From positions 34,722,001 through 34,786,000 of the forward strand of contig NC_087251.1 in assembly GCF_037042905.1 (NCBI RefSeq): DNA of 64,000 nucleotides. The letters run 5' to 3'. This document shows, piece after piece, positions 102 to 63,637 of the stretch; the first letter of the stretch is position 1; the number at the start of each line of letters is the position of its first letter. Made by a program: the position numbers and the translations under genes. The DNA is from Lytechinus pictus (taxonomy: Eukaryota). Below the pieces are notes generated by a model. It did not search any database, was not told where the DNA came from, and was given only the letters and a program-made list of their open reading frames with translations.

Positions 102-18332
<18,231 letters not shown>

Positions 18333-24299: not shown

Positions 24300-27200
24300 A
24301 ATTTGACTTTCTCTGTATCACAGTATCAGTCACTCTTGCTTTTGAGAATGAAAGAAGGGAAATAAAACATATCGTGCTTAATAGTTGAGCATGCTGGAAC
24401 ACGACCAATATGAGCTGATGGGCTAGTTCGGAAGACAAGAGACAGGGTTAAGGAATTTAAGAGTCATTATTAATGTAAGCAGGATCAATAGACGACCGCA
24501 AACATCAGTTGAAGAAGCTTTCCTTGGTAATAAAAAAGAATATGATTTTCATAATGAAAATAAAACAAGTCGGAAAAGAAATACACTCAGTTGACTTAAT
24601 TAATAAAAAGGAAAACAGGAAGCACATATATTGTTTTTGTATCATTTGCCTTGCTTCTGAAAATGAGAGAAAAAAGTAAAAACATATCATTTTAGCAGGG
24701 CATGGAGACATGGTTTAGAAGATGTTAATAAGTGGCTACAATAGGTAATAAAACATATGTCAATGTTAATGATAGCAGGATCACTGGAAAAACTATTATA
24801 ACTGAACTGTATAACCTGGAAAATAAGAGTCATTATAATAAATATTCATGTTTAAAAATTATCAAGCCTGAAAAGAGAAGACAATAAAGATCAGAAGTTA
24901 TAAGTCATATAGAAGATGGCCAGTACCAGCTAAAGTGGATTTCCTTGGTGAAAAAAAATCATTGTTCATAATATAATCAAAATGCATTGAGACAAAATAA
25001 GGGAAACATACACCACGCTTGTATAATCAATCAATAATAATTTCAGTAAGTACATATTGGACTTTTGTTGTTGTATGGTCCGCTTTGTTTCTGAGAGAAT
25101 GAAATAAAAACACATCATGTTAGCGGGGCACTGGACACAGCTAAGGGGAATTCATAAGGCTTTAAAAAATCATTACATATGTTAAGAGGGGCAATAGAAC
25201 ACCGCCTCCGCCACCTCAGGTAGTTTCACTGTAAAAAAAGAATCATTATCAATATTATATAATCCAAATAAAAAGATAATATAACTAGAATGCATCCAGC
25301 CGCTGGAAGACCGTCAGTTTAAACCAAGTGACTACTTTGAGTAAATGCGAGTCATTAATAGTATAATAATATCATAATTACGACAGAATCAAGATGGATC
25401 CGCTAGGAGAGTCGTTAGCAAGGGTATTATGATATATTCTGCATTTAACATGGACTACTTTTGTAGAACACTGCCAATAAATGCTGACGCGAAGTGGCTA
25501 ATCGGAGTAAATAAGAATGACCATTATTAACATTATCTTCAATCTTGTCCAGCCTAAAAAAAGGGGGATATACCACACAGAGTTAATGATTGGGCCCTTG
25601 TAATCATCCCGCCAGCCTTATCTGTACACCAGTGTCATTTCTTGACCACCATTGCCATATAAAAGCAATAGCTTGATCACATGATCTCCCCTAAATAGGA
25701 AAGAAAAATCATTAAGCTGATATTAAAAGAACGAAGAGAAAAATAAAAAAAATTATGTTACTTTTAACCCTGTTTTGTCTAAATTCTTCTCTAATTTCTA
25801 GGACTTTGATTCAAATTTGACCTGGCACAAGATAAAATATTTTGTCCTTTCTTTTTCAAAATAATGGGGTAAACTCAGATAACCATTGTATCAATTGGAC
25901 TTTCCGATTAAATTGTGAGTATCATACATTCCAGTTTAATTGTAACTTGCGAAATTATTGTTTTTCGTCATACCTAATGAATTCTCTTTGATTTAATGAG
26001 TTACCCCATATAATAATATGTAAAATATGTGAAAATAATATGGAAATTGCCTCATGGCTCTTGATTAAATGTGACAAAAAATGTTATATCGTTCAGAATT
26101 ATCGATTACTTACATTCATATAGACGGAGGGTGAAATAATCAAAAGAAGCAGTAGACTTTACTGACGGTGTGATGTTGAATATATGATCATGGTAAGAGC
26201 CAAAAAATTACTCACTGATGAAAGGATGACGAAGCTAGTGGTAGATGGAGATTGGTTGCTCTCTGTGGAAGGGTGACAAAGCTAGTGGTAGATGGAAGAA
26301 AACAAGTTCCTCTATAATGAAAAGGTGACAAAGCTAGTGATTTAGATGGAGGACATTATTTGCTCTCTGATGAAAGGGTGACGAAGCTAGTGGTTTAGAT
26401 GGAGACTAGTAGATTTCTGATGAAAGGGTGACGAAGCTAGTAGCAGATGAAATGACAGTAGTTGCTCTCTGATGAAACGGTGACGAAGTTAGTAGCAGAT
26501 GAAATGACAGTAGTTGCTCTCTGATGAAAGGGTGACGAAGCTAGTAGCAGATGAAATTAGACTAGTTTCTCTATGATGAAAGGGTGACGAAGCTAGTAGC
26601 AGATGAAATGAGACTAGTTGCTATCTGTGGAAGGGCGACGAAGCTCGTGGTAGATGAAATGAGACTAGTTGCTCTTTGATGAAAGGGTGTAGAGGGAAGG
26701 AGACTAGTGTCTCTATAATCAAAGGGTGACGAAGCTAGTGGTAGATGAAATGAGACGAGTTTATCTATGATGAAAGAGTGACGAAGCTAGTAGCAGATGA
26801 AATGAAACTAGTTGCTATATATGGAAGGGCGACGAAGCTCGTGGTAGATGGAATGAGACTAGTTGCTCTTTGATGAAAGGGTGACGAAGAAAGTTGTAGA
26901 GGGAAGGAGACTAGTGTCTCTATAATCAAAGGGTGACGAAGTTAGTGGTATATGAAATGAGACGAGTTGCTTTCTGATGAAAGGGTGACGAAGATAGTAG
27001 AAGATGAAATGAGACGAGTTGCTCTCTGATAAAAGGGTGACGAAGCTAGTGGTAAATAGAAGAAAACTAGTTTCTCTCCGTGGAAGGGTGATGAAGCTAG
27101 TGGTAGATGGAAGGAGACTAGTTTTTCTAGGATCAAAGGGTGGCGAAGCTAGTGGTTTAGATGGAGGAGAATAATTGCTCTCTGATGAAAGGGTGACGAA

Positions 27201-30200
27201 GCTAGTGGTAGATGGAATGAGACTAGTTGATCTCTGGTAAAAGGGTGACGAAGGAAGTGTTAGATGGAAGGAGACTAGATGTTCTCTGATTAAACGGTGA
27301 CAAAACAAGTGGTAGATGGGGGAGGTGAGCTGGCGGTAGATAAGAGACTATTTGTTCTCTCATGGAAAGGTGACAAAGCTAGTGGTAGATGGAAGGAGGC
27401 TCTGATGAAAGGGTGACAAAGCTAGTAGAAGATGAAATGAGACGAGTTTCTCTCTCCGGAAGGGTGACGAAGCTAGTGGTAAATAGAAGAAAACTAGTTC
27501 CTCTCCGTGGAAGGGTGATGAAGCTAGTGGTAGATGGAAGGAGACTAGTTTTTCTAGGATCAAAGGGTGGCGAAGCTAGTGGTTTAGATGGAGGAGAATA
27601 ATTGCTCTCTGATGAAAGGGTGACGAAGCTAGTAGAAGATGAAATGAGACGAGTTCCTCTCTGCTGAAGGGTTACGAAGCTAGTGGTAGAGGGAAGGAGA
27701 CTAGTTGCTCTTTGATGAAAGGGCGACGAAGCTAGTAGCAGATGAAATTAGACGAGTTCCTCTCTGTGGAAGGGTGACGAAGCTAGTAGTAGATGGAAGA
27801 AAACTTGTTTCCCTATGATGAAAGGGTGACGAAGCAAGTGGTTTAGATGGAGGAGACTAGTGCTCTCGGATGAAAGGGTGACGAAGCTAGTGGCATAGAT
27901 GGAGGAAACGAGTTGCTCTCTGATGAAAGGGTGACAAAGCTAGTAGAAGATGAAATGAGACTAGTTGCTCTCTGTGGAAGGGTGATGAAGCTAGTGGTAG
28001 ATGGAATGAGACTAGTTGATCTCTGGTAAAAGGGTGACGAAGGAGGTGTTAGATGGATGGAGACTAGATATTCTCTGATCAAACGGTGACAAAACTAGTG
28101 GTAGATGGAGGGAGGTGAGCTGGCGGTAGACAGAAGGAGACTATTTGTTCTCTCATGGAAAGGTGACAAAGCTAGTGGTAGATGGAAGGAGGCTCTGATG
28201 AAAGGGTGACAAAGCTTATAGTAGATTAGTTGCTCTCTGTGGAAGGGTGACGAAGCCAGTGGTAGATTGAAGGATGCTAGTTCCTCCCAGATGAAAGGGT
28301 GACGAGAGCTAGTGGTACATGGAAGGAGACTAGTTGCTCTCTGATTTATGGGTGAAGAAGCTAGTGATAGATAGAAGGAGACTAGTTGCTCTCTGATGAA
28401 AGTGTGATAGAGCTGGTGATAGATAGAAAGAGTCTACTTGCTCTAGAGGATGACGAAGCTAGTTGAAGAAGGGAGACAAGTTGCTCTCTGATTTAAGAGT
28501 GACGAAGCTAGTGGAAGATGGAAGAGACTTTCTGGTGACAGGGTGATGAAGCTGGTGGTAGATGGGATACTAGTTGTCTCAGATGAAAGGGTGTCGAAAC
28601 GAGTGGTAAATGGAATGAGACTAGTTGATCTCTTGTACAAGGGTGGCAAAGCTAGTGATAGATGGAAGGAGACTAGTTGATCTCTTGTACAAGGGTGACA
28701 AAGCTAGTGATAGATGGAAGGAGACTAGTTGATCTCTTGTACAAGGGTGACAAAGCTAGTGATAGATGGAAGGAGACTAGTTGATCTCTTGTACAAGGGT
28801 GACAAAGCTAGTGATAGATGGAAGGAGACTAGTTGATCTCTTGTACAAGGGTGACAAAGCTAGTGATAGATGGAAGGAGACTAGTTGATCTCTTGTACAA
28901 GGGTGACAAAGCTAGTGATAGATGGAAGGAGACTAGTTGATCTCTTGTACAAGGGTGACAAAGCTAGTGATAGATGGAAGGAGACTAGTTGATCTCTGGT
29001 AAAAGGTTGACAAAGCTAGTGATAGATGGAAGGAGACTAGTTGATCTCTGGTAAAAGGTTGACAAAGCTAGTGGTAAAGTGAAAGAGAGTAGTTAGTTTC
29101 TGATGAAAGGGTGACGAAACCATTGGTAGAAGGAGGGAGACTAGTTGCTCTCTGACGAAAGGATGACAAAGCTAGTTGAAGACGGAAGGCGGCTAGTTGC
29201 TCACTGATGAAAGGGTGACGAAGCTAGTGGTAATTGGAAGGAGAATACTTGATTTCTGATGGAAGGGTGGCGAAGATTACTAAATGAAACTAGTTTTGAC
29301 AAATCGCTGCTGGCAGGAAACCTGTGGAATAAAATACTTATACATATCCTGGCTCTCAAACAATCTGACATTACAACTAAAATCATCACACTTAGTTACA
29401 TTTTTTTTACAGTTTGTGTATATATCGTCATTACTCATTACGAGTTATCAACCAAAATAGTCAACCCCACAATCAACCATACCCTACCAGAATACCAAAT
29501 ATCTGGTATATTAAATTAGTTTTCATCCCTTTCTAAGGATGTGATAAATTGTTCAGCTGTATTAAACCTCTTTGGTTGTATGAGCTTTGTTGGATATCGG
29601 TGAAAAATTTGCTGTATAATTGTTCCACAGGAAAATTACTCTCGCGGAGCTTGTTAGATTTTCAAGAGGGTATTTCCTCGTCGATATGGTTGCAGAAGCT
29701 TCTCTTCCAAAGCGCGTGAAGATGAAGGCCCCTATTCATATCCAACACCTGGAACATAAACAAAAAATAGTAATGATAGAAAATTATTTGTTTCTGACGA
29801 TTGTCTGGCATTTAATTATACATAAACCCGCACCAAAAATACAAACCTTACGGTTTGTTGTCACTTGATAATAATCATCTCTTTTTTAAATAATGTTTTT
29901 ATTCATCATCTAGATCTATCAATAGAAAATTATTAAACCGTTGTAGTTGCAAGTTTGATTTTGATCGTTGATTTTATTCTTTTTGAGTACCTAATTTGTC
30001 TAAAGCCCTTTTAATGATAAAATCAACAATAATATTATGAAAAACTATGTCTCCAACACTTTACTAAATGTAAAGAAATGTGTATCTGTATTAAAGTGTC
30101 AAATCAAAATTACGAGAATTTAATAACAGCAATGTTAATAACGAATTACAAGATATAGACTGATACCATTGATTGATGTATACAAAGACATTGTAAAAAG

Positions 30201-31586
30201 AGTACTAGTGAAATTAAACTTACCGCGATAATTCAAACGAACGAGACGATCGGTGCTACGTATTGAGCATGATGACTAAAAGCAAGAAACGAATGATCAT
30301 ACGAGAGACTCAACGAATGAACGAGTGGACGGACGAAAACGTAAAAACAAAGTCAACGGTTTATGTTTTTTCCTCGTCGAAAGTAAAGCCAGAAGACGAT
30401 TTCAACTAAAGCGCCACCTCAAGCCGTTTCAGGAATAGTCGTACTATCCCAGTCGCGTTAAAAATAAGTAACCTTCGAGCGCTTATGCAGCAATCTTCTT
30501 GACATGATATTATAAATTTACTGAGCAATTTTAGTCAAGGCCCCATACTAAGGCCCTAGATGCGTGACTTTTTCTACAAACCATGGCATTAAAATTCGCC
30601 CCACAAACCAGCTCGACAACATTCATAGAATCATTATGATCACGAACTGATACAAGTATATTGTTCCCCTGGTATATATGACCATGATGACTGAGGTTTC
30701 AAGTCACTCAGGTTGGCAAGACGACGAAAGCCGCGAATGTTTTTTTAACTGTCCAAATACGACCTTGCTAATGCTGGGTATGTATTTTGGGGGGGTATTC
30801 CATACCTGAAACATAAACACAATAGATCCATGTTAATTTAAATCTCGATTCTGATAATTATTTCTATGCACTAGATCTATAAAATAAAACAAATTTGTCT
30901 TTTCCTCATTACAATTTACATTGTTTTTAATATAATTTTACAATGTATTCATTATGATATTTATATATTGTGCCAGCAACCTTTTAAACGAGAAAGCTAC
31001 AGCTGCAGCTTAATTCATGTACGATATTGCATAATCATCAATAAATGCCATTCTTGAATTGAACTGAATTGAACAATAACCGGTGCTATTATCGCTATCA
31101 TAATCATCATCATCATCTCCATGCGGTAAAAATTTTAGGTTGTTAATTATTTACTAATGTTTCATCTAGATATAATAACATAAAGAAAGTTAGGCCTATG
31201 TTTTCATACGATTGTTACAATTTGTTCCTTACAAGCGCATATAACGAACTATTCCAATTCAAAACCACTGATCCTTTGAGCAACAACATTCCTGTACAAA
31301 ATAACAAAAATATGAAGCGGATGGATAGCCCATATTCAGTTTTGTCTACACGACACATGTTGTCCATAATGGTAACGATATCTAGATCTATTACTATAGC
31401 TATTGCATGGGACTGGAAATTGTTAGAACTATTAACTGTCCAAAAAGAATAACGAAAATTGTACAAAAACAATCTGATCATATCTACATGTAGGAAGAAG
31501 TGCAATATTAAACTATTCTAATCCTTGGTCTTTTTTAACTTTGAATATTGGCTCTTTATTAGTTTCTATATCGATAGGCCTATTCA
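24300..31586. repeat. Macro-repeat unit A (partial and more diverged)
   Basis: 24300-26200 aligns loosely to ~34305-36730; satellite at 26210-29280; 29280-31586 aligns closely to 39920-42515. Confidence 0.88.
26210..29280. repeat. 52-bp minisatellite block 1
   Basis: Consensus GAAAGGGTGACGAAGCTAGTGGTAGATGGAAGGAGACTAGTTGCTCTCTGAT. Confidence 0.95.
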
Positions 31587-32052
31587 TGATCCATCCATTC
31601 GCACTCACACTTGACTTTTTGAGGATTACCATGGGAAAATAATTCTCCATGGGGTTTACAACTCGATCTGCTATGGGACTGTGCACTGAACCACACTATT
31701 ATCCTTATAAGTAAAGTAGAAATTGTATGGAAATTCAGAAAAGGATATAATTGGAATGCTATCAATATTACACAAAAGTACTTACTCAGCACTTAGTTTC
31801 TCCTGCTCTAAGAAGTAAATTGGGTAGCGAGCTGCCCCAAATCAATCAAACGAAAAATTAAAAAAATAATCAAACATACAAAATAAATGTAATATATCTC
31901 ACCTTTTAAACGTTCGTAACGGATGTTCCTACGAGGGCAAACGTAATGCATTTCGTATACGAAATCTATTAACGCCCGAATATCGAATGTCGTCAATGCT
32001 TTCTACGATAATTTCACCTACCCTAATCTTGGCATGTGAAAGTATGTTTACC

Positions 32053-32284
32053 CAGGGGCGGCGCCAGGGTATAGGGGGCAAGACGACCGAGAGGTGTCGT
32101 CAATTTGTTTGTTTTTGTTTTTCATTTGAATAATAGTGTTCTTATGGAGTTCAAGGAACTAATACGATATTTTATTTTTTTAATTCGTTTTTGTATTCTT
32201 CTCCTCTTTTGTAATTTTCTTTAAATACTTTAAACAAAATTCAGAGGCAACGTCTCCACCCCCTCACTGCCGGCACCGCCCCTG
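32053..32284. mobile_element. MITE within the macro-repeat (copies near 42974-43200 and 53901-54127)
   Basis: CAGGGGCGGCGCC ... GGCACCGCCCCTG; no clean TSD. Confidence 0.6.
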
Positions 32285-35200
32285 TAAGGAATTACGCCGA
32301 ATCCTCGCTAACAATTCAACGAGATTTGTAGGGGGAAAAGCCTTACAACCTTTTTCTTTAAAAAAAGTTGTAAAGCTTTCGGCACATACTAATTAAAAAA
32401 TATTTAAATGAATTCGATTACCCGTAGGTGGCAACGCAGCAATCTTCTTGATATGACACAATAACATTTATGGAGATGGGCTAAGATCAAGCTTCGGTCA
32501 GGCTCCTATGGGGGACCCTATAATTTTGCCTAATTAATTTACTCTACAAATCCTGGCACTAAAACCAAACCGTAACCCATATCCATAAATGTCAAAGTTT
32601 CATTAAGATCAGTAAGTGATATTGTCGTGTTGTTCTAGGGGTAAAATGACTCACTCATACAAATGTTCAGTCTGACATCTGTCCTCTCTCTGATATCGGC
32701 ATGTATCCATGTCCACAGGAACATGATTTCAGCTCCAAACAAAATTTTCCTCTAAGATCCAGTGTTTAAATATTTATCCGCAGCTCCACAAATAAGTCTC
32801 TGTCCGCTGATGTTCACAATATTATCAAGTTTAAATGGGTAAATCAAGGGGAGAACAACCGTCCAGAGACCCATCAACAAGCCTCCCGTGAGGTTCGGAT
32901 TAGTCTCGGCGAAGTTCTATCTTTAAAATGGTGTCTAGTCCGCACACAGAAAATATAGGGATCCGTCCAAGAAGAAATTTGTTGACTGATTCTGCATCTA
33001 GAGTTCTTCTGAAAGTATTGTGTCCATAAAGTAATAGACATTTATCCAGAACTTGGAACTTGAAGTCATCAGGATTTGTTTCTCAAGTTCAACATTGGAG
33101 GAGGCGTGGTGGATGAAGCGAAGTCAATGATAAGTAAATAAGAACACAAACTTCTCCGGGAACTGAGTCTTCATTGTGGAAACGTTCATGGTACTTTCCA
33201 TTCGATCTCCTTGTCCATATTTCGAAAAAAGTTCAAGATAGCTTCCGGAATTTAAATTCTGTGAAAACTGTGAAATTAAAAAGAAAAAGAACAAGTATCA
33301 TTAAGACCAATGCAAAATCATAATGAATACCGGTACAAAAAAGGCGTCACAAACCAACGGGGGGGGGGGGGCATCAGCCAGTAATCGGGTACATGCCGTT
33401 AAGTTGAACATTTTGGGTTGATTAACAAAATGTGCAATTACCAAAATGCAATATTTATGGCACAATTAGGAAACTGCACACTTAGTTGATTAGTGACTAC
33501 TCGACTTATTACGGATTTATCAATATGGATCCTGGTCGACTAGCAGTTGGCCTTTGGTTGACCAAAAAGAAGGGAAATGGCATGACCTACGGAGCAAACT
33601 TCCCAAAAAGTTGAGAGCCAGCAAAATCAATTTTAAAATCAAAATACAATTTTGTGATATATATCAAGATATAATATTCATGAATTGATGTCACCATTTT
33701 CCCTTTTTCTTTCATTTTCTCCCTTGATTTTCCTTGTCTTTCTTAATCGTTGAACTTTTGAGGGGCATCACCCCCTCCCACCCCCATACATACACCTGTG
33801 GAATGTGAAAGTGATAAAACAGACATTTAAGATAACCTTTTTTAAAAGAAGAGAACATAATCATGAAAATCGTTATATTGGATGAAGACAAATATATAAT
33901 ATCCGATGTAATTTTACCTCCTAAATTATGTTTCTATAAAATTCAGAATGGAACGAATTCTAGTTCTCCGAGATGCATTGGCATGATTGGAGATGAATAA
34001 GAACTATGCAGGTAAATGATACTTAACACATGTTCTGGCAAGTATATCAGCGAAAACAGATTAAAATCTAAGTACAAGCTTAAGACGAGTCTTTAGAAAA
34101 GTTTGGATGAGAAATCTTTCCTTCACATTAGTAAATACAAAAGTGACTTGATATGTTTGAAAAGAGCAAAACCAAACTACTTACCTTGATCATCTTCGAA
34201 GTTTTGGCGGGTGGCACAAAATTATTCGGCGGGCCACAGTTTCAGATCTCACGAAAATCCTAAGCCTGTATTCACATATTTTGCTAAAAATATTTTGTTA
34301 AATGGGAATTTCTGTCTATGAATCAGCCACTCTGGTTTTGAGAATGAAAGAATGGAATAAATCGTACCATGTTCAATAGCAGGGTACGCTGGAACTCCAC
34401 CAATAAAAGTTGAAGTGGCTACCTATATGTAATTAAGAGTTATTGTTATGTTAATCGGTTAATGGCAATGATAGCAAAGGCGCCGGAAAACCACTACTAA
34501 AAGTTGAACTGACAACGTGGAAAAATAAGTAAGAGTTATTATTAAGAGTAAGGCAAATTATTTGATTTCATTAGTAGGAAAGATGGAAAACTGCCTATAA
34601 TAGCTGAAGTGGTTATCCTTAGTAAAAAAAGAGAGTCGTCATCAATATTAATGTTTAAAACGTATCAAGCCTGAAAAGAGAATAAAGATCATAAGATCCA
34701 AGTTACGAAAATTACATGCCAAAATCAATTATTTGATAATATATGATTGAAAGGGAAATTTTGAAGCATACTTTTCCATTCTTTTCAGCAACTCTGCTTA
34801 AAGTGAAAGAAGAGAAACAATAACATACATTAGCATAGCCGATGGAAGACAAAAAAAATTAAATTGTATACACCACAGAAAATAAAGGTCTTTATTAAGG
34901 GTTATCTTACAAATGCTAACGAAAAATAACGGTCATCACTAATGTAAGAAGGATTAATCGAAAACCACCAACATCAGTTGAAGTGGACTCCCTTCGTAAC
35001 GAAGGAAATAAAACAAGTCTGGAAAAAAAGTGAGACGTATACAAAGAAACGGAAATATACTTGGATAACATAATAAATCAATTATAAATTTCAATCAGCA
35101 CATAATATTGGACTCTTGTTTTTGTATCAGCCGCCCTGCTTCTAAGAATGAGGGAAAGAAACCAAAGCATATCGTGTCAGTAGGACACGGAAGCATGGTT

Positions 35201-36729
35201 AGGGGAGTGCTAGTAAGACAGAGAAAAGAACGTCAATAATAATCTGAAAAGGTTACCTTACATTAAAAAATATATTGTTAATGGTAATGATAGCAGGGTC
35301 GCTGGAAAAAAACCTATCAAAACGGAACTGTCTAACCTGGAAAATAAGAGCCATTATGAATATTCATGTTAAAAAAGTATCAAGCCTGAAAAGAGAAGAC
35401 AATAAAGATCAGAAGTTAAAAGTTATATAGAAGACGGCCGATACCAGCTGAAGTGGTGTTCCCTGACGAAAAAAAAGAATCATTGTTCATAATATAAAAA
35501 TGCATCCAGAAAAGAAGAGAATCAGAAGTGGGAAAACAGAAATACACTGGTATTAAATAGTTAATCAATAATAATTTCACTAAGTATTATTGGATTTTTT
35601 TCCTTTTGATCATCCGCTCTGTTTCTGAAAGAAAGAAAAGAAAGCATATCATGTACGCGGGGCACAATTAAGGGGGTACTCCTAAGGCTTTATAAAAAAA
35701 ATATTGCCTATGGTTTTGTAAAGGGTCAGTACAAGACCGCCTTTCGCTACATGTGTAAAAAGAATAATCATTATTAATATTATAAATATTAATATTATAA
35801 TTAAAATGCATCGAACCGCTGGAAAAGTGCTTGCAAAAACCGAGTGGCTACTTTCTGTAAATAGAATCATAGATATTGTATAATATTTTAATTAGGACAA
35901 AATCATATCAAGTTGGGTCCACTGAGAGATGTTTGCCTGTTTGGGTAACGTAATTTAGAGTTGTTAGCATTTGTATCATGATATATTCTCTATTAAAAAA
36001 AATGTACTACTTTCGTAGAAGACTGTCAATAAACGCTGACGCGAAGTGGCTAACCTGAGTAAATAAGAATTACTATTATTATTAGCATTGTCTTTAATCT
36101 TATCCAGCCTAAAAAGAAAAAAAAATAGCACATAGAGTTACTGATTCTGCTGTTGAAATCATCGTGACAGTCTTCTCTCTAGGTCTTTGTTGCCTTGAAA
36201 ACAGTGATTACTTTGTCAAAAGATATCTACTGAATAAAAAGGAAATATCGATAAATCTAAGCTGAAATTAAAGTAAAGAGAAAATTAACATTTCAAACAT
36301 TAACTTCAGATTTTATCAATAATATTTTATGTTTTTTTATTCCAGCTTGGCCTGGCACAAGGAACAAGATTTTTTTTTTGGGGGGTGGGACCGCGGGATT
36401 TTTAGAAATCATGGGATAAACTAAGTTAATCATATCTATGAAAATGAAGTTTATAAGATAATTGAGTTTCTCATGAAGTTTTGTGTCTCAGTTTAATTGT
36501 AACCTTCTGTAAAATTGATTTTGTCATACTTATTGGATACTCTTTGATTTTAATAGTTGCGTAATATAATGATATGGAAACAGCTTAATGGCTTTCGATT
36601 AAATGTGAAAAGGAAGTGGAATTACATTGAAATTATTTATTTTTTCTTACCTTTATTTAGACGAAGGGTGAAATGATCGATAGAAACAGCAAAGCTTATT
36701 GACGGAAAATGTTGAAGGGGATCATGGTA

Positions 36730-39700: not shown

Positions 39701-39910
39701 AGTGGTAAAGTGAAAGAAATAAATTAGTTTCTGATGAAAGGGTGACGAAACTATTGTTAGAAGGAAGGAGACTAGTTGCTCTCTGACGAAAGGATGACGA
39801 AGCTAGTTGAAGATGGAAGGCGGCTAGTTGCTCACTGATGAAAGGGTGACGAAGCTAGTGGTAAATGGAAGGAGAATACTTGCTTTCTGATGGGAGGGTG
39901 ACGAAGCTCA
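36730..39910. repeat. 52-bp minisatellite block 2
   Basis: Same consensus as block 1. Confidence 0.95.
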
Positions 39911-41559: not shown

Positions 41560-41744
41560 ATTGTCTCTTCATCATTACATTTTACATTAATTTTCTTATA
41601 ACTTTTTAATGTATTCATTATGATATATATATGATGTGCCTACAACCTTTTAAACGAGAAAGCTACATCTGCTGCTTAATTCATGTACAATTTTGCATAA
41701 TCATCAATAAATGCCATTCTTGAATTGAATTGAACTGAATTGAA
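41560..41744 (+). mobile_element. Probable LINE 3'-tail remnant present in each unit (also near 31070, 52660, 63090)
   Basis: AATAAA followed by (TTGAA)n; left boundary uncertain. Confidence 0.4.
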
Positions 41745-42515
41745 CAATAACCGGCGTTATTATCGCCAGTTCATAATCATCATCATCATCTCCATGCGGT
41801 AAATGTTTTAGGGTGTTAATTATTTACGAATGTTTCATCTAGATACAATAACATAAAGTTAGGCCTATGTTTAAGTCATATATTATACGATTGTTACAAT
41901 TTGTTCCTTAACCGCGCATATAATGGCCCTTTCCCATTCAAAACCCACGATCCTTTGAGCAACAACCATGGTATAGCAAAATATTAATTTTCTGTATAAA
42001 ATAACAAAAATATGAAACGGCTGGATAGTCTATATTCAGTAATGCCAACACGACACATGATGTCCAAAATGGTAACGATGTCTAGATCTATTACTTTTAC
42101 GTGCATGGGACTGTCAATTGTTAGAACTATTAACTGTCCAAAAAGAATTACGAAAATTGTACAAAAACAATCTTAGCATATCTATATGTAAGAAGAAGTG
42201 TAATATTAAACTATTCTAATCCTTGGTCTTCTTTTGACTTTGAATTTTGGTTCTTTATCAGTTTTGTCAACACGACAAATGATGTCCATAATGGTAACGA
42301 TGTCTAGATCTATTACTATTACGTGTATGGGACTGGCAATTGTTAGAAATATTAACTGTCCAAAAAGAATTACGAAAATTGTAAAAAAAAAAAAAAAACA
42401 ATCTTAGCATATCTATATGTAAGAAGAAGTGTAATATTAAACTATTCTAATCCTTGGTCTTCTTTTGACTTTGAATTTTGGTTCTTTATCAGTTCTATAT
42501 CGATAGGCCTATTCA

Positions 42516-51500: not shown

Positions 51501-53442
51501 ATCAAACATATGTCATTGCTAGTTTGATTTTGATCATTGATTTCATAATTTCTAAGTACCTAATTTGTCTAAAGCCCTTTGATAATAGAATTAACGGTAA
51601 TATTATGAAAAACTATGTCGCCACCACTTTACTAAATGTGAAGAAATGTGGATTTGTATTAAAGTGTCAAATCAAAATTACGAAATTTTAATAACAGCAT
51701 GTTAATAACGAATTATAAGATATAGACTGATACCATTGATTGATGTATACAAAGACATTGTAATAAGAGTACTAGTGAAATTAAACTTACCGCGATAATT
51801 CAAACGAACGAGACGATCGGTGCTACGTATTGAGCATGATGACTAAAAGCAAGAAACGAATGATCTTACGAGAGACTCAACGAATGAACGAGTAGACGGG
51901 CGAAAACGTAAAAACAAAATAAACGGTTTATGTTTTTTCCTCGTCGAAAGTAAAGGCTTAACTAGAAGACGATTTCAACTAAAGCGCCACCTCAACCCGT
52001 TTCAGGAATAGTCGTACTATCCCAGTCGCGTTAAAAAGTAAATAACCGTCGGGTATAATTCAGCAATCTTCTTGACATGATACTATGAATTTACTGAGCA
52101 AATTTAGTCAAACCCCTATACTAAGGCCCTAGATGTGTGATTTTTTTCTGCAAACCATGGCATTAATATCGCCTCACAAACCAGCTCGACAACATTCATA
52201 GATTCATTAATATCATGACGTGATACAAGTATATTGTTTTCCGGGTATACATGACCATGATGACTGAGGTTTCAAGTCACTCAGGTTGGGAAGACGACGA
52301 AAGCTGCAAATGTTTTTCTTTTACTGTCCAAATACCACCTTGCTAATGCTGGGTAAATATTTTTTGGGTATTCCTTACCTGAAACATAAACACAATAAAT
52401 CCATGTTAATTAAAATCTCGATTCTGATAATTATTTCAGAATGTGATGATTATGCACTAGATCTACAAAATAAAACCAAATTGTCTCTTCATCATTACAT
52501 TTTACATTAATTTTCTTATAACTTTTTTAATGTATTCATTATGATATATATATGATGTGCCTACAACCTTTTAAACGAGAAAGCTACATCTGCTGCTTAA
52601 TTCATGTACAATTTTGCATAATCATCAATAAATGCCATTCTTGAATTGAATTGAACTGAATTGAACAATAACCGGCGTTATTACTGCCAGTTCATAATCA
52701 TCATCATCATCTCCATGCGGTAAATGTTTTAGGGTGTTAATTATTTACGAATGTTTCATCTAGATACAATAACATAAAGTTAGGCCTATGTTTAAGTCAT
52801 ATATTATACGATTGTTACAATTTGTTCCTTAACCGCGCATATAATGGCCCTTTCCCATTCAAAACCCACGATCCTTTGAGCAACAACCATGGTATAGCAA
52901 AATATTAATTTTCTGTATAAAATAACAAAAATATGAAACGGCTGGATAGTCTATATTCAGTAATGCCAACACGACACATGATGTCCAAAATGGTAACGAT
53001 GTCTAGATCTATTACTTTTACGTGCATGGGACTGTCAATTGTTAGAACTATTAACTGTCCAAAAAGAATTACGAAAATTGTACAAAAACAATCTTAGCAT
53101 ATCTATATGTAAGAAGAAGTGTAATATTAAACTATTCTAATCCTTGGTCTTCTTTTGACTTTGAATTTTGGTTCTTTATCAGTTTTGTCAACACGACAAA
53201 TGATGTCCATAATGGTAACGATGTCTAGATCTATTACTATTACGTGTATGGGACTGGCAATTGTGAGAAATATTAACTGTCCAAAAAGAATTACGAAAAT
53301 TGTAAAAAAAAAATAAAAAAAAAACAATCTTAGCATATCTATATGTAAGAAGAAGTGTAATATTAAACTATTCTAATCCTTGGTCTTCTTTTGACTTTGA
53401 ATTTTGGTTCTTTATCAGTTTCTATATCGATAGGCCTATTCA
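42516..53442. repeat. Macro-repeat unit C (10,927 bp)
   Basis: Near-identical to units B and D. Confidence 0.97.
47650..50830. repeat. 52-bp minisatellite block 3
   Basis: Same consensus; variant order nearly identical to block 2. Confidence 0.95.
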
Positions 53443-56400
53443 TGATCCATCCATTCGCACTCACATTCTTTAGGATTACCATGGGAAAATAATTCACCAT
53501 GAGGTTTACAACTCGATCTACTATGGGACTGTGCACTGAACCACACTATTATCCTTATAAGTAAAGTAGAAATTGTATGGAAATTCAGAAAAGGATATAA
53601 TTGGCATGCTATCAATATTACACAAAAGTACTTACTCAGCACTTAGTTCCTCCTGCACTAAGAAGTGAATGGGGTAGCAAGCTGCCCCAAAATCAAACAA
53701 ACGAAAAATAAAAAATAATCAAACATACAAAATAAATGTAATATATCTCACCTTTTAAACGTTCGTTACGGATGTTCCTACGAGGGCAAACGTAATGCCT
53801 TTCATTTACGAAATCGATTAACGCCCGAATATCGAATATCATTTATTTTTCTACGATAATTTCACCTGCCATAATCTTGGCATGTGAAAATATTTTTACC
53901 CAGGGGCGGCGCCAGGGTATAGGGGGCAAGACAACCAAAAGGTGACGTCAGTTTGTTGGTTTTGTTTTTCATTTGAATAATAGTGTTCTAATGGAGTTCA
54001 AGAAACTAATACGATCTTTTATTTTTTAAATTCGTTTTTGTATTCTTCTCCTCTTTTGTAATTTTCTTTAAGTACTTTAAACAAAGGGGGAAACGCCCCC
54101 ACCCCCTCACTGCCGGCACCGCCCCTGTAAGGAATTACACCGAATCCTTGCTAACAATTCAACGAGATTTGTAGGGGAAAAGCCTTACAACCTTTTTCTT
54201 TAAAAAAAAGTTGTAAAGCTTTCGGCACATATTCATTAAAAAATATGAAATGAATTCGGTTACCCGTAGGTGACAACAAAGCAATCTTCTTGATATGACA
54301 CAATAACATTTATGGAGATGGGCTAAGATCAAGCTTCGGTCAGGCTCCTATGGGGGACCCTATCATTTTGCCAAATTAACTTACTCTACAAATCCTGGCA
54401 CTAAAACCAAACCGTAACCTATATCCATAAATGTCAAAGTTTCATTAAGATCAGTAAGTGATATTGCCGTGTTGTTCTAGGGGTAAAATGACTCACTCAT
54501 ACAAATGTTTAGTCTGACATCTGTCCTCTCTCTTATATCGGCATGTATCCATGTCCACAGGAACATGATTTTAGCTCCAAACAAAATTTTCCTCTAAGAT
54601 CCAGTGTTTTAAATATTTATCCGCAGCTCCACAAATAAGTCTCTGTCCGCTGATGTTCACAATATTATCAAGTTCAAATGGGTAAATCAAGGGGAGAACA
54701 ACCGTCCAGAGACCAATCGACAAACCTCCCGTGAGGTTCGGATAAGTCTCGGCGAAGTTCTATCTTAAAAATGATGTCTAGTCCGTACACGAAAACTACA
54801 GGGATCCGTCCAAGAAGAAATTTGTTGACTGATTCTGCATCTGGAGTTCTTCGGAAAGTATTGTGTCCATAAAGTAATAGACATTTATCCAGAACTTGGA
54901 ACTTGAAGTCATCAGGATTTGTTTCTCAAGTTCAACATTGGAGGAGGCGTGGTGGATGAAGCGAAGTCAATGATAAGTAAATAAGAACACAAACTTCTCC
55001 GGGAACTGAGTCTTTATTGTGGAAACGTTCATGGTACTTTCCATTCGATCTCCTTGTCCATATTACGAAAAAAGTTCAAGATAGCTTCCGGAATTTAAAT
55101 TCTGTGAAAACTGTGAAATTAAAAAGAAAAAGAAAAAGTATCATTAAGACCAATGCAAAATCATAATGAATACCGGTACAAAAAAGGCGTCACAAACCAA
55201 CGGGGGGGGGGGGGGGGGCATCAGCCAGTAATCGGGTACATGCCGTTAAGTTGAACATTTTGGGTTGATTAACAAAATGTGCAATTACCAAAATGCAATA
55301 TTTATGGCACAATTAGGAAACTGCACACTTAGTTGATTAGTGACCTGTGGAATGTGAAAGTGATAAAACAGACATTTAAGATAACCTTTTTTAAAAGAAG
55401 AGAACATAATCATGAAAATCGTTATATTGGATGAAGACAAATATATAATATCCGATGTAATTTTACCTCCTAAATTATGTTTCTATAAAATTCAGAATGG
55501 AACGAATTCTAGTTCTCCGAGATGCATTGGCATGATTGGAGATGAATAAGAACTATGCAGGTAAATGATACTTAACACATGTTCTGGCAAGTATATCAGC
55601 GAAAACAGATTAAAATCTAAGTACAAGCTTAAGACGAGTCTTTAGAAAAGTTTGGATGAGAAATCTTTCCTTCACATTAGTAAATACAAAAGTGACTTGA
55701 TATGTTTGAAAAGAGCACTACCAAACTACTTACCTTGATCATCTTCGAAGTTTTGGCGGGTGGCACAAAATTATTCGGCGGGCCACAGTTTCAGATCTCA
55801 CGAGAATCCTAAGCCTGTATTCACATATTTTGCTAAAAATAATTTGTTAAATGGGAATTTCTGTCTATGAATCAGCCACTCTGGTTTTGAGAATGAAAGA
55901 ATGGAATAAATCGTACCATGTTCAATAGCAGGGTACGCTGGAACTCCACCAATAAAAGTTGAAGTGGCTACCTATATGTAATTAAGAGTTATTGTTATGT
56001 TAATCGGTTAATGGCAATGATAGCAAAGGCGCCGGAAAACCACTACTAAAAGTTGAACTGACAACGTGGAAAAATAAATAAGAGTTATTATTAAAAGTAA
56101 GGCAAATTATTTGATTTCATTAGTAGGAAAGATGGAAAACTGCCTATAATAGCTGAAGTGGTTATCCTTAGTAAAAAAAGAGAGTCGTCATCAATATTAA
56201 TGTTTAAAACGTATCAAGCCTGAAAAGAGAATAAAGATCATAAGATCCAAGTTACGAAAATTACATGCCAAAATCAATTATTTGATAATATATGATTGAA
56301 AGGGAAATTTTGAAGCATACTTTTCCATTCTTTTCAGCAACTCTGCTTAAAGTGAAAGAAGAGAAACAATAACATACATTAGCATAGCCGATGGAAGACA

Positions 56401-59400
56401 AAAAAAAATAAATTTTATACACCACAGAAAATAAAGGTCTTTATTAAGGGTTATCTTACAAATGCTAACGAAAAATAACGGTCATCACTAATGTAAGAAG
56501 GATTAATCGAAAACCACCAACATCAGTTGAAGTGGACTCCCTTCGTAACGAAGGAAATAAAACAAGTCTGGAAAAAAAGTGAGACGTATACAAAGAAACG
56601 GAAATATACTTGGATAACATAATAAATCAATTATAAATTTCAATCAGCACATAATATTGGACTCTTGTTTTTGTATCAGCCGCCCTGCTTCTAAGAATGA
56701 GGGAAAGAAACCAAAGCATATCGTGTCAGTAGGACACGGAAGCATGGTTAGGGGAGTGCTAGTAAGACAGAGAAAAGAACGTCAATAATCTGAAAAGGTT
56801 ACCTTACATTAAAAAATATATTGTTAATGGTAATGATAGCAGGGTCGCTGGAAAAAAACCTATCAAAACGGAACTGTCTAACCTGGAAAATAAGAGCCAT
56901 TATGAATATTCATGTTTAAAAAGTATCAAGCCTGAAAAGAGAAGACAATAAAGATCAGAAGTTAAAAGTTATATAGAAGACGGCCGATACCAGCTGAAGT
57001 GGTGTTCCCTGACGAAAAAAAAAGAATCATTGTTCATAATATAAAAATGCATCCAGAAAAGAAGAGAATCAGAAGTGGGAAAACAGAAATACACTGGTAT
57101 TAAATAGATAATCAATAATAATTTCACTAAGTTTTATTGGATTTTTTTTCCTTTTGATCATCCGCTCTGTTTCTGAAAGAAAGAAAAGAAAGCATATCAT
57201 GTACGCGGGGCACAATTAAGGGGGTACTCCTAAGGCTTTATAAAAAAAATATTGCCTATGGTTTTGTAAAGGGTCAGTACAAGACCGCCTTTCGCTACAT
57301 GTGTAAAAAGAATAATCATTATTAATATTATAAATATTAATATTATAATTAAAATGCATCGAACCGCTGGAAAAGTGCTTGCAAAAACCGAGTGGCTACT
57401 TTCTGTAAATAGAATCATAGATATTGTATAATATTTTAATTAGGACAAAATCATATCAAGTTGGGTCCGCTGAGAGATGTTTGCCTGTTTGGGTAACGTA
57501 ATTTAGAGTTGTTAGCATTTGTATCATGATATATTCTCTATTAAAAAAAATGTACTACTTTCGTAGAAGACTGTCAATAAACGCTGACGCGAAGTGGCTA
57601 ACCTGAGTAAATAAGAATTACTATTATTATTAGCATTGTCTTTAATCTTATCCAGCCTAAAAAGAAAAAAAAATAGCACATAGAGTTACTGATTCTGCTG
57701 TTGAAATCATCGTGACAGTCTTCTCTCTAGGTCTTTGTTGCCTTGAAAACAGTGATTACTTTGTCAAAAGATATCTACTGAATAAAAAGGAAATATCGAT
57801 AAATCTAAGCTGAAATTAAAGTAAAGAGAAAATTAACATTTCAAACATTAACTTCAGATTTTATCAATAATATTTTATGCTTTTTTATTCCAGCTTGGCC
57901 TGGCACAAGGAACAAGATTTTTTTTTGGGGGGGGGGTGGGACCGCGGGATTTTTAGAAATCATGGGATAAACTAAGTTAATCATATCTATGAAAATGAAG
58001 TTTATAAGATAATTGAGTTTCTCATGAAGTTTTGTGTCTCAGTTTAATTGTAACCTTAACTGTAATATTGATTTTGTCATACTTATTGGATACTCTTTGA
58101 TTTTAATAGTTGCGTAATATAATGATATGGAAACAGCTTAATGGCTTTCGATTAAATGTGAAAAGGAAGTGGAATTACATTGAAATTATTTATTTTTTCT
58201 TACCTTTATTTAGACGAAGGGTGAAATGATCGATAGAAACAGCAGAGCTTATTGACGGAAAAATGTAGAAGGGGATCATGGTAAAAGCTAGACTAGCTGC
58301 TCTCTTACGAAAAAGTGTTTATGCACAAAAATATTGGTCGATAGATGGAAACTGGTTGCTCTCTGTTAGATGGAGTCTAGATGCTCTGTGATGAAAGGAT
58401 GACGAAGATAGTGGTAGGAAGGAAGGAGACTAGACATTTTCTGATTAAACAGTGACAAAACTAGTGGTAGATGGAGGGAGATGAGCTGGCGGAAGATGGA
58501 AGGAGACTATTTGTTGTCACATGGAATGTGAAAGGGTGAAGAAGCTTCTGGTAGATGAAAGAGACTACTACGAAATTAGTTGAAGAAGGAAGGATGCTAG
58601 TTTCTCCCAGATGAAAAGGTGACGAAGCTAGAGGTAGATGGAGACGAGTGGCTCTCTGACGAAAAGGTGATGAAACTAGAGATAGATGGAAGGGGACTAG
58701 TTGCTCTCTGATGAAAGGATGATAGAGCTTGTGGTAGATGGAGGAGACAAATGTTCTCTGATTAAACGGTGACAAAACTAGTGGTAGATGGAGGGAGATG
58801 AGCTGGCGGTAGATGGAAGGAGACTATTTGTTCTCTCATGGAAGGGTGACGAAGCTAGTGGTAGATGAAAAGAGGCTGTAATGAAAAGGTGACAAAGCTT
58901 GTTGTAGGAGATTAGTTGCTCTCTGTGCAAGGGTGACGAAGCCAGTGGTAGCCAGAAGGATGCTATTTTCTCCCAGATGAAAGGGTGACACAGCTAGTGA
59001 TAGATGGAGACCAGTTCCTCTCTGATGAAAGGTTGATGAAACTAGTGATAGATGGAAGGGGACTAGTTGCTCTGATGAAAGGATGATAGAGGTAGTGGTA
59101 GATGGAAGTAGAATACTTGCTCACTGACGAAAGGGTGACGAAGCTAGTGATAGATGGAAGAGACTCTCTGATGAAAAGGTGACGAAGCTAGTGGTAGATG
59201 GAAGGAGACTAGTTGCTCTCTGATGAAAGGGTGACGAAGGTAGTGGTAGATAGAAAGAGACTACTTGCTGTAAATGGTTACGAAACTGGTTGAAGGAAAC
59301 TAGTTGGTCGCTTGTGTAAGGGTGAAGAAGCTAGTGGTAGATGGGAAAGAAACTAGTTTCTCTCTGATGAAAGGATGAGGAAGCTAGTGGTAGATGAAAG

Positions 59401-62400
59401 AGACTACTTGCTATAAATGGTGACGAAACTAGTTGAAGAAGGAAGGAAACTAGTTGGTCTCTACTGAAAGGGTGACGAAGCCAGTGGTAGATGGAAGAGA
59501 CTGTCTGATGACAGGGTGATGAAGCTGGTGGTAGATGAGGGACTAGTTGTTCTCAGATAAAAGGGTGTCGAAACTAGTGGTAAATGGAGTGAGACTAGTT
59601 GATCTCTGGTAAAAGGGTGACAAAGCTAGTGTTAGATGGAAGGAGGCTAGATGTTCTCTGATTAGACGGTGACAAAACTAGTGGTAGATGGAGGGAGATG
59701 AGCTAGCGGTAAATGGAAGGAGACTATTTGTTCTCTCATGGAAGGGTTACGAAGTTAGTGGTAGATGGAAGGAGGCTCTGATGAAAGGGTGATAAAGCTT
59801 GTGGTAGGAGATTAGTTGCTCTCTGTGGAAGGGTGTCGAAGCCAGTGGTAGATAGAAGGATGCTAGTTCCTCCCAGATGAAAGGGTGACGAGAGCTAGTG
59901 GTACATGGAAGGAGACAAGTTGCTCTCTGATTTAAGGGTGACGAAGCTAGTGATAGATGGGAGGAGACTAGTTGCTCTCGGATGAAAGGGTGACAAAGGT
60001 TGTGGTAGGAGATTAGTTGCTCTCTGTGAAAGGGTGACGAAGCTAGTGGTAGATGGAAGGAGACTAGTTGCTCTCTGATTTAAGGATGACGAAGCTAGTT
60101 GAAGAAGGAAGGAGACTTCTTGCTCTCTGATTTAATGGTGACGAAGCTAGTGGTGGATGGTAGAGACGCTCTGATGACAGGGTGATGAAGCTGGTGGTAG
60201 ATGGGAGACTAGTTGTCTCAGATGAAAGGGTGACGAAACTAGTGGTAGATGGAAGGAGACTAGCTGCTCTTTGATGAAAGGGTGACGAAGCTAGTGGGGG
60301 ATGGAAGGAGGAGACTAGTTGCTCTCTGATGAAAGGATGACGTAGCTAGTGGTAGACAGAAGGATAATAGTTGCTCACTGGTGAAAGGGTGACGAAGCTA
60401 GTGGTAGATGGAAGGAGACTAGTTTCTCTGATTTAAGGGTGACGAACCTAGTATAGATGGAAGGAGACTAGTTGCTCACTGATGAAAGGGTGACGAAGCT
60501 AGTGGTAGATGGAAGAGACTCGCTGATGACAGAGTGATGAAGCTGGTGGTAGATGAGAGACTAGTTGTTCTCAGATGAAAGGGTGACGAAACTAGTGGTA
60601 GATGGGAGGAGACTAGTTGCTCTTTAATGAAAGGGTGATGGTATTAGTGATAGATAGAAGGAGGAGACTAGTTGCTCTCTGATGAAAGGATGACGTAGCT
60701 AGTGGGAGATGAAAGAGACTACTTGCTATAAATGGTGACGAAACTGGTTGAAGAAGTAAGGAGACTAGTTGCTCTCTGATGAAAGGATGACAAAGCTAGT
60801 GGTAGACAGAAGGATAATAGTTGCTCACTGGTGAAAGGGTGACAAAGCTAGTGGTAGATGAACGAGACTACTTGCTATACATGGCGACGAAACTAGTTGA
60901 AGAAGGAAAGAGACTTGGGCTCTCCTGAAAGGGTGACAAAGCCAGTGGTAGATGGAAGGAAGCTAGTTGCTCTCTGATGGAAGGATTAAGAGGCTATTGG
61001 TAAACGGAAGAAGACTAGTTGATGTCTGGTAAAAGGTTGTCAAGGTTAGTGGTAAAGTGAAAGAAATAAATTAGTTTCTGATGAAAGGGTGACGAAACTA
61101 TTGTTAGAAGGAAGGAGACTAGTTGCTCTCTGACGAAAGGATGACGAAGCTAGTTGAAGATGGAAGGCGGCTAGTTGCTCACTGATGAAAGGGTGACGAA
61201 GCTAGTGGTAACTGGAAGGAGAATACTTGCTTTCTGATGGGAGGGTGACGAAGCTCAGATTAAAGAGATTACTAAATTAAACTAGTTTTGACAAATCGCT
61301 GCTGGCAGGAAACCTGTGGAATAAAATACTTATACATATCCTGGCTCTCAAACAATCTAACATTACAACTAAAATCATCAAACTTAGTTACATTTTTTTT
61401 ACAGTTTGTGTATATATCGTCATTACTCATTACGAGTTATCAACCAAAATAGTCATCCCCACAATCAACCATACCCTACCAGAATACCAAATATCTGGTA
61501 TATTAAATTAGTTTTCATCCCTTTCTAAGGATGTGATAAATTGTTCAGCCGTATTAAACCTCTTTGGTTGTATGAGTTTTGTTGGATATCGGTGAAAAAA
61601 ACTGATGTATAATTGTTCCACAGGAAGATTACTCTCGCGGAGCTTGTTAGATTTTCAAGAGGATATTTGCTAGTCGATATGGTTGCAGAAGCTTCTCTTC
61701 CAAAGCGCGTGAAGATGAAGGCCCCTATTCATATCCAACACCTGGAACATAAACAAGAAAATAGTAATAATAGAAAATAGTTTGTTTCTGACGACTGTTT
61801 GGCATTTGATTATACATAAACCACGCACCAAATATACAAACCTCATGGTTTGTTGTCACTTGATAATAATCATCCATTTAAAAAAATAATATTTCTATTC
61901 ATTATCTAGATCTATCGATAGAAAAATATCAAACATATGCCATTGCTAGCTTGATTTTGATCATTGATTTCATAATTTCTAAGTACCTAATTTGTCTAAA
62001 GCCCTTTGATAATAGAATTAACAGTAATATTATGAGAAACTGTCTCCACCACTTTACTAAATGTAAAGAAATGTGGATTTGTATTAAAGTGTCAAATCAA
62101 AATTACGAAATTTTAATAACAGCATGTTAATAACGAATTATAAGATATAGACTGATACCATTGATTGATGTATACAAAGACATTGTAATAAGAGTACTAG
62201 TGAAATTAAACTTACCGCGATAATTCAAACGAACGAGACGATCGGTGCTACGTATTCAGCATGATGACTAAAAGCAAGAAACGAATGATCGTACGAGAGA
62301 CTCAACGAATGAACGAGTAGACGGACGAAAACGTAAAAACAAAATAAACGGTTTATGTTTTTTCCTCGTCGAAAGTAAAGGCTTAACTAGAAGACGATTT

Positions 62401-63637
62401 CAACTAAAGCGCCACCTCAACCCGTTTCAGGAATAGTCGTACTATCCCAGTCGCGTTAAAAAGTAAATAACCGTCGGGTATAATTCAGCAATCTTCTTGA
62501 CATGATACTATGAATTTACTGAGCAAATTTAGTCAAACCCCTATACTAAGGCCCTAGATGTGTGATTTTTTTCTGCAAACCATGGCATTAATATTCGCCT
62601 CACAAACCAGCTCGACAACATTCATAGATTCATTAATATCATGACGTGATGCAAGTATATTGTTTTCCGGGTATACATGACCATGATGACTGAGGTTTCA
62701 AGTCACTCAGGTTGGGAAGACGACGAAAGCTGCAAATGTTTTTCTTTTACTGTCCAAATACCACCTTGCTAATGCTGGGTAAATATTTTTTGGGTATTCC
62801 TTACCTGAAACATAAACACAATAAATCCATGTTAATTAAAATCTCGATTCTGATAATTATTTCAGAATGTGATGATTATGCACTAGATCTACAAAATAAA
62901 ACCAAATTGTCTCTTCATCATTACATTTTACATTAATTTTCTTATAACTTTTTTAATGTATTCATTATGATATTTATATGATGTGCCTACAACCTTTTAA
63001 ACGAGAAAGCTACATCTGCTGCTTAATTCATGTACAATTTTGCATAATCATCAATAAATGCCATTCTTGAATTGAATTGAATTGAACTGAATTGAACAAT
63101 AACCGGCGTTATTATCGCCAGTTCATAATCATCATCATCATCTCCATGCGGTAAATATTTTAGGGTGTTAATTATTTACGAATGTTTCATCTAGATACAA
63201 TAACATAAAGTTAGGCCTATGTTTAAGTCATATATTATACGATTGTTACAATTTGTTCCTTAACCGCGCATATAATGGCCCTTTCCCATTCAAAACCCAA
63301 GATCCTTTGAGCAACAACCATGGTATAGCAAAATATTAATTTTCTGTATAAAATAACAAAAATATGAAACGGCTGGATAGTCTATATTCAGTAATGCCAA
63401 CACGACACATGATGTCCAAAATGGTAACGATGTATAGATCTATTACTTTTACGTGCATGGGACTGTCAATTGTTAGAACTATTAACTGTCCAAAAAGAAT
63501 TACGAAAATTGTACAAAAACAATCTTAGCATATCTATATGTAAGAAGAAGTGTAATATTAAACTATTCTAATCCTTGGTCTTCTTTTGACTTTGAATTTT
63601 GGTTCTTTATCAGTTTCTATATCGATAGGCCTATTCA
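53443..63637. repeat. Macro-repeat unit D (10,195 bp)
   Basis: Near-identical to C apart from a 298-bp deletion, ~207 bp less satellite and one fewer ~230-bp duplicate; homology stops after ataggcctattca at 63637. Confidence 0.97.
58280..61255. repeat. 52-bp minisatellite block 4
   Basis: Same consensus; about 4 monomers shorter than block 3. Confidence 0.95.

Follow-up and report, generated by a model that had tools for sequence, protein, structure and literature searches.

The 64,000-nucleotide stretch of the Lytechinus pictus genome analysed here (the window: assembly GCF_037042905.1, contig NC_087251.1, forward-strand positions 34,722,001 to 34,786,000, renumbered from its first letter) contains a head-to-tail array of long, near-identical units, each with a 52-bp minisatellite set among exon-like segments. 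A shared anchor at 31566, 42495, 53422 and 63617 sets the bounds of the units, giving anchor-to-anchor lengths of 10,929 bp for unit A (31566–42494), 10,927 bp for unit B (42495–53421) and 10,195 bp for unit C, which reaches 63616 and is followed by 24 bp of a further unit start (53422–63640 together). An older partial unit, U0, precedes them at 24250–31565, its left edge lying at about 24250–24300. All four are in the plus orientation. An earlier description of the locus made from the letters alone (the sequence-only reading) had listed three units of these same lengths and an older fragment, all direct, and our self-alignment agrees with it on each of these points.

Units, edges and divergence

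In the self-alignment, 31336–44416 matches 42258–55344 directly at 97.5% identity, and 33794–42264 matches 55343–63616 at 93% when satellite indels are counted; the self-comparison that had been suggested as a check shows one long direct repeat. Among the self-BLAST matches listed for the array region (at least 40 bp, satellites masked), all are direct. Units A and B differ at 116 of 10,856 aligned sites with 23 gap events, A and C at 130 of 10,173 with 24, and B and C at 72 of 10,184 with 13. The near-identity claimed for the units therefore holds overall, at 0.7–1.3% pairwise divergence, but it varies along the array, with about 5% divergence over the first 1.5 kb of unit A and 0.5–1% elsewhere. 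Of 74 variable sites within 31566–32999, 68 are private to A; over the other 9 kb or so, the private sites number 18 in A, 22 in B and 40 in C. Private substitutions occur along whole units (86 in A, 26 in B and 42 in C), with 80 transitions and 74 transversions among them. Satellite lengths differ between units by whole monomers (52, 52, 52 and 207 bp), and unit C, compared with the longest version, is missing 298 bp at about 55343 and approximately five satellite monomers. U0 is 89% identical to the other units in 29281–31565 and 66% identical in 24463–26200; it is a mosaic, about 25–35% diverged to the left of about 29060 and 1–11% diverged, depending on the feature, to the right.

Adjacent direct copies longer than 1 kb and more than 90% identical are commonly called a tandem segmental duplication, and the array, with 10.2–10.9-kb copies at 98.7–99.3% identity, is of this kind. 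The term "macrosatellite-like", which had been applied to the locus, fits the size of the head-to-tail units (several kb) but overstates an array of three copies and a fragment, in a window that ends 360 bp past the last match. The homology stops at 63640, where it meets unrelated sequence. This terminal piece (63641–64000) opens with a short hairpin, is then G-rich and later T-rich, and weakly resembles an insertion nested in the units; it is probably another insertion, cutting the next unit after 24 bp. The array may continue beyond the window.

An array made of alleles, or of mis-joined reads, from one or two real units that were placed in tandem by the assembler has to be considered at this point. 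Highly heterozygous marine invertebrate genomes and repeats assemble poorly, the sea urchin Sp185/333 locus is described as having been mis-assembled (PMC5103432, in the text available), and the 5% divergence at the left edge of A is of a size that could separate two alleles. Against this stand three versions of the unit with private substitutions along their whole length, the 298-bp deletion and the whole-monomer indels, together with a novel junction (described below) that is present twice, with small differences between its two occurrences. Since three distinct versions exist, two alleles are insufficient as a source. We regard such an origin as very unlikely; the array, judged on its letters, is probably not an assembly artefact. 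No RNA run is listed as containing the stretch, which does not bear on expression. One public DNA run contains a small share of it, with 12 of 30 bins of 29300–36800 covered at low depth and no contig across a junction. At 32391–32651, ten of the 15 listed differences of this run from A are B letters. This shows that sequence of the B type exists in that run, not that it is arranged in tandem; moreover, the window itself may derive from this run.

No mobile element was recognized in the units as a whole. The sequence-only reading had denied them long terminal repeats (LTRs), terminal inverted repeats (TIRs) and an open reading frame (ORF) for a transposase or reverse transcriptase, and we likewise find no terminal repeats among the pairs shown and no stop-to-stop frame longer than 162 amino acids within the array. 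TIRs are absent from the unit ends among the 25 longest of the 133 inverted pairs in 22000–36800 and the two pairs in 61260–64000. One qualification concerns the interior of the units: each carries a nested insertion of 227–232 bp that resembles a miniature inverted-repeat transposable element (MITE), with imperfect inverted ends of 26 bp (32053–32284, 42974–43200 and 53901–54127). With no terminal repeats at unit ends and no long ORF, the units do not classify as LTR, TIR or Helitron transposons, Helitron ends having been checked by eye only.

The minus-strand splice skeleton and its repeats

The minus strand of unit A holds five segments, each lying between a splice acceptor and a splice donor. 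E1 (40871–41458; U0 copy 30224–30805) has a CpG-rich 3' half and ends in a strong donor; the observed/expected CpG ratio is 1.8–2.1 at 40710–41110, in an array with a GC content of about 36%. It is followed by E2 (40133–40394; U0 copy 29488–29748) and by a large segment that contains the satellite (36651–39966), the acceptor and donor of which are also found in U0, at 29321 and 26113. E3 (34185–34422) has 57 codons open from its acceptor, then two stops and a strong donor, and the last segment, X (31903–33268), has many stops in every frame and is broken by the MITE-like insertion. That the parts follow the same order in every unit, as had been claimed, is borne out, with the correction that the order is to be read on the minus strand.

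Using splice matrices of generic values, we counted five donors of at least 10 bits on the non-satellite minus strand, compared with 0.8 +/- 0.8 in 100 Markov shuffles (P about 0.01); the plus strand has only one donor above 9 bits. At four of the five strong donors the exon side is the GC-richer, and the fifth coincides with the E1 acceptor. Among ten sites picked by eye, nine have a higher GC content on the exon side than on the intron side (mean +0.09, P 0.0003 against random GT/AG). Paralogy also links a portion of X to the 5' half of E1 (z 14 and 22), while the 3' halves of X and E1 align at chance level only (z 0.6–1.0). An exon-intron skeleton on one strand is what an unprocessed pseudogene displays, and it is found here, as far as generic matrices and partly hand-picked sites can define it.

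The roughly 3 kb of 52-bp repeat that had been reported per unit was located in all four copies, on no particular strand: at 26208–29275 in U0 (56 monomers segmented, 31 of them of 52 bp), 36810–39908 in A (54 monomers), 47731–50828 in B (54 monomers) and 58364–61255 in C (49 monomers). In U0 and A, 50 monomers are exactly 52 bp long, and their identity to their own consensus has a median of 86.5%. Five identical 52-bp monomers stand in a row at 28693–28952 of U0, the oldest block, and to judge from their identity they are a very recent local expansion. Mucins are known to have one large exon filled with a tandem repeat (the PTS or variable-number tandem repeat (VNTR) exon), and one minus-strand frame of the monomer does give a Ser/Thr/Pro-rich peptide, as in such exons. 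However, 52 is not divisible by three, and two stops occur in the full cycle of frames; only 48 of the 213 segmented monomers have a length divisible by three, each satellite block has 30–46 stops per frame, and no mucin domain was found. The block thus lacks the open frame of a coding mucin VNTR exon and cannot code now. A derivation of the 52-mer from the sub-repeat zone described below was considered and rejected, as no match exceeded shuffles save at the block's own decayed edge. A satellite 24-mer had no match in metagenomes.

The satellite might also be thought of as a tandem minimal hammerhead ribozyme of the retrozyme type, with the unit as its carrier. The plus-strand monomer has CTGATGA, GAAGC or GAAAC, a short stem and GTT in that order, which is the order of a hammerhead, and there are 14–17 CTGATGA motifs per block. 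CTGATGA is followed by GAAAC in only one or two monomers per block and by GAAGC in seven, though, and pairing of helices I and II is not visible by eye in the consensus. The family is missing from the Rfam matches up to E 5, and satellite pieces fold no better than shuffles (four of four; z -0.6 to 1.5). A core with GAAA and helices I, II and III was not found, and we reject this highly improbable reading; a literature search combining hammerhead, tandem repeats and sea urchin returned nothing related.

The degenerate sub-repeats noted earlier are present as well, and prove to be decayed tandem copies of the E3 acceptor and the start of that exon. They occupy 34480–36100 in unit A, on the minus strand, with counterparts at about 24300–25530, 45400–47020 and 56030–57650. 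Six of eight matches to the E3 acceptor plus exon start in unit A, and three of six in U0, score above the best of 60 shuffles; three control regions have one, none and none such matches, none above the best shuffle. Minus-strand acceptors are correspondingly frequent in the zone (14, against 4.3 +/- 1.8 expected). Tandem copies that span an intron-exon boundary beside their source exon are of the kind called "mirage" minisatellites in amphioxus, which likewise repeat the 3' end of an intron and the start of the next exon (PMC3087553); units of 150–160 bp are given there for BflGb6, and the copies in the E3 zone are of 80–185 bp. The amphioxus mirages are, in the text available, 81–100% identical and inside working genes (PMC3087553), whereas those of the E3 zone are about 60–70% identical and lie in a triplicated dead module.

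Loss of coding capacity and the low-divergence block

All frames of E1, E2 and X contain stops, many of them common to every copy. Substitutions between copies fall on codon positions 1, 2 and 3 in the numbers 38, 38 and 36 (proposed frames, six segments summed), and joining the five segments in silico produces 5,770 nt in which the longest ATG frame has 55 amino acids. Disabled frames and an absence of coding constraint are the marks of an unprocessed pseudogene, and the module shows both. The sequence-only reading had proposed a gene skeleton amplified after the loss of coding; the minus-strand splice skeleton, the shared stops, the lack of third-position bias and the short spliced ORF uphold this, but no search has returned a parent protein. 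In the public run, one contig (depth 3.4; read by hand) has two single-base insertions that equalize the lengths of the X piece and its E1 paralogue. From the skeleton, the exon paralogy, the 57 open codons of E3 and this contig, we infer a former protein gene as the origin of the unit. E1 and X may resemble CUB domains, a likeness seen by eye and so far unconfirmed: frameshifted E1 and X pieces have no match to a CUB profile or fold in Pfam or the PDB, and their models, with a predicted local distance difference test score (pLDDT) of 31 and 41, have no fold match. The probable explanation of the array, in our view, is that a dead gene module of several exons underwent neutral tandem segmental duplication, and the locus itself is most likely without function.

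Several results weigh against this explanation. Depletion of stops or frameshifts is not significant in any of eight candidate segments, in a test of low power that two real cathepsin exons also failed. Pfam searches with 43 frame readings of array segments gave nothing better than E 0.1, the only weak matches being at E 0.23 and 0.12. Homolog searches returned 872, 3 and 2,754 candidates, none of which scored, the second search having been run in an unintended frame and those in the intended frames having covered proteins of 507 amino acids or more. The cuttlefish and fly matches from a representative search, made with the unintended frame of X, were tandem-repeat proteins with short chance matches and were rejected. 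Additionally, one part of the unit has changed much less than the E1 body and two other introns: U0 differs from A–C at 7 of 261 sites in E2, 2 of 166 in the intron between E2 and the satellite and 9 of 256 in the E1 tail, and the emptiest 200-bp window has a single difference (P 0.0004, permutation). Selection on a spliced non-coding RNA may alternatively have caused the likeness of the E2 block.

Other searches named no parent either. Foldseek with the AlphaFold models (pLDDT 31 and 41, unusable) gave no match at E 0.001, two further PDB sequence searches gave none, and no relative was seen among viral contigs. PDB sequence matches to haemoglobin alpha (E 0.07), the mitoribosomal protein mS34 (E 0.016) and a pentapeptide-like protein (E 0.47) were set aside as being without Pfam backing. 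The window has no Rfam match at gathering score, with three chance-level matches up to E 5 in 29000–43000, and no tRNA genes were found. A signal-peptide start in the E1 tail was also discarded, its ATG being present in U0 and missing from A and C. Over the same conserved tail, the plus strand has a basic reading of 98 codons at 40792–41085, with one internal stop and no Pfam match; U0 and A differ there by a 6-base indel.

These empty searches, and the non-significant stop depletion, are what would be expected if the unit had never been a protein gene at all and were non-coding or transposon-derived DNA with chance splice-like sites, tandemly amplified and possibly by a rolling circle. Helitron-like elements, moreover, are known to form head-to-tail arrays with minisatellites inside them. 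We nevertheless hold this reading to be unlikely, given the excess of donors and the GC steps on one strand, the exon-exon paralogy and the repeat zone anchored on an acceptor; the unit junction, moreover, is a microhomology within an older duplicated stretch and not a defined element end.

The low-divergence block bears on a second possibility, a spliced, repeat-rich long non-coding RNA (lncRNA) transcribed from the units, with a CpG-rich first exon (the E1 tail), E2 and the 3.3-kb satellite exon, in three to four copies, which might serve as a dosage-variable nuclear RNA or as a source of small RNAs. The splice signals around E2 and the satellite exon are intact in both U0 and A; divergence is 1–3.5% in the E1 tail, in E2 and in the short intron, against 9–11% in their neighbours, the comparison segments being the E1 body (35 differences in 326 sites) and two other introns (44 in 475 and 73 in 760); and the CpG ratio of the tail is high. 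Human macrosatellites, too, often yield non-coding RNA according to the available text of PMC5687341. However, splice dinucleotides would often survive 10% divergence by chance, no Rfam family matches at gathering score and the satellite shows no unusual folding. Because the conserved block takes in a whole intron, and because X is equally patchy inside one segment, we read the block as conversion tracts, and a transcript of this sort seems to us an outside chance. Still a little less probable is re-use of the dead gene in full, with the E1 tail as promoter and first exon, a spliced RNA bearing about 55 copies of the 52-nt repeat per unit, selection on the E2 block, and a triplication that would change the dose of this RNA 6 kb upstream of a cathepsin F-like gene.

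Proposed amplification route, setting and known systems

The junctions between units suggest how the amplification of the dead module may have proceeded. A 222-bp piece that is single at 31346–31565 and at 63398–63616 is doubled at both internal junctions, that between A and B (42046–42494, with 7-bp microhomology at 42258–42264) and that between B and C (52967–53421, microhomology at 53179–53185), both on the plus strand. The seven bases, TCAGTTT, are found both where the first copy ends and where the leftmost copy starts, and both junctions pass through them. The old period is 10,700 bp (31346 to 42046) and the new one is longer by 222 bp. At 23 sites that distinguish the leftmost from the unit-end copies, the junction copy is like the leftmost at six and like the unit-end at 17, and all six leftmost-like sites lie within the first 81 of about 240 columns. 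We modestly favour a join made out of register between old paralogues, with partial conversion afterwards; local slippage of 222 bp at the same microhomology could also have produced the doublet. The unit junction falls in the intron between X and E1, and the array thus reads as a repeated five-exon module.

On these observations, the history may be reconstructed as follows. A minus-strand gene, probably protein-coding, would have contained the five-exon module whose skeleton is seen today (E1, E2, the large repeat-filled exon, E3 and X), and U0 and the ancestor of A–C would go back to an old tandem duplication whose period was about 10.7 kb. Coding was lost before or around the split of U0 from A–C, with the 52-bp repeat then turning over out of frame and the E3 acceptor being multiplied locally. 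A new tandem copy would then have arisen through the 7-bp microhomology join, in the intron and 222 bp off the old register, and unequal crossover between near-identical units would have brought the array to three units and made its interior uniform; what remained would be a diverged left edge and patches of conversion between U0 and the rest. A diverged edge with a homogenized interior is the pattern expected from unequal crossover, and in amphioxus repeats the boundaries of clusters are likewise described as excluded from homogenization (PMC3087553). Conversion, for its part, is suggested by the patchiness of divergence within a single exon-like segment, at 11 differences per 100 bp beside 1–3 per 100 bp, and by the last four monomers of U0, which match the last four of A in the same order. 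Among the alternatives that had been offered for the array, neutral expansion by unequal crossover fits this tiered and patchy divergence best. Unit copy number is probably variable among individuals.

Elsewhere in the window, a cathepsin F-like gene occupies 1–18330 on the minus strand, its 3' end lying off the window. Its papain-family exon is at 6004–6240 (Pfam Peptidase_C1, E 3e-21), and its first exon, near 18102–18330, encodes by eye a signal peptide and a cystatin-like start, with no Pfam match. Just upstream, at 18483–18492, is GTCACATGAC, which we take to resemble the CLEAR/TFEB element of lysosomal genes; this motif suggests that the cathepsin gene is driven by a promoter distinct from the array. 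The acceptor and start of the cathepsin exon at 6175–6255 recur in decayed form at 6360–6440, just upstream in the intron, as a small mirage-like duplicate. A cathepsin intron contains a foldback-like element at 9970–13330, with long inverted arms of 23-bp and 48–50-bp sub-repeats, and at 8528–8790 a long (AGT)n microsatellite gives way to an inverted run of (TAC)n. Two-copy tandem duplications outside the array are seen at 2776–3228 (242 bp), 3483–3887 (198 bp) and 23874–24102 (102 bp).

The closest parallel within sea urchins is offered by the Sp185/333 (SpTransformer) clusters, where recent multi-kb tandem duplications in the same orientation also include a partial copy and are explained by mispairing, unequal crossover and conversion (PMC5103432). 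As far as that account is available, those units measure 4.2–4.6 kb and have GAT repeats at their bounds, the two-exon immune genes inside them are intact, and pseudogenes are nearly absent (PMC5103432), whereas the units of the array are of 10.9 kb, joined at microhomology, and have broken exons only. The triplicate region of human nebulin resembles the array in being a multi-exon block that occurs as three head-to-tail copies and readily changes in copy number; in the text consulted it is an eight-exon coding block in a working gene (PMC9109913), while the array repeats a non-coding module with no working host gene in the window. The human macrosatellites D4Z4, DXZ4, RS447, RNU2 and CT47 share head-to-tail units of several kb, but those listed in the available text have units of 1.4–6.1 kb, a GC content of 48–71%, up to tens or hundreds of copies and often a product (PMC5687341), compared with three copies of 10.9 kb and low GC content here. 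The array would thus seem to be a tandem segmental duplication like known ones, without an intact gene.

If the neutral duplication of a dead gene module is the true explanation, the locus has little importance in itself, and would provide a clean example of tandem turnover at four scales in one place: the 52-bp minisatellite, the splice-site mirage, the 222-bp junction doublet and the 10.9-kb unit. It would then also be a likely copy-number marker. The array would be of greater importance if the unit makes a spliced repeat RNA, or if an intact parent exists: the exons were not assigned to any known family by the searches, and they could come from a surface protein that evolves fast and is specific to the lineage.

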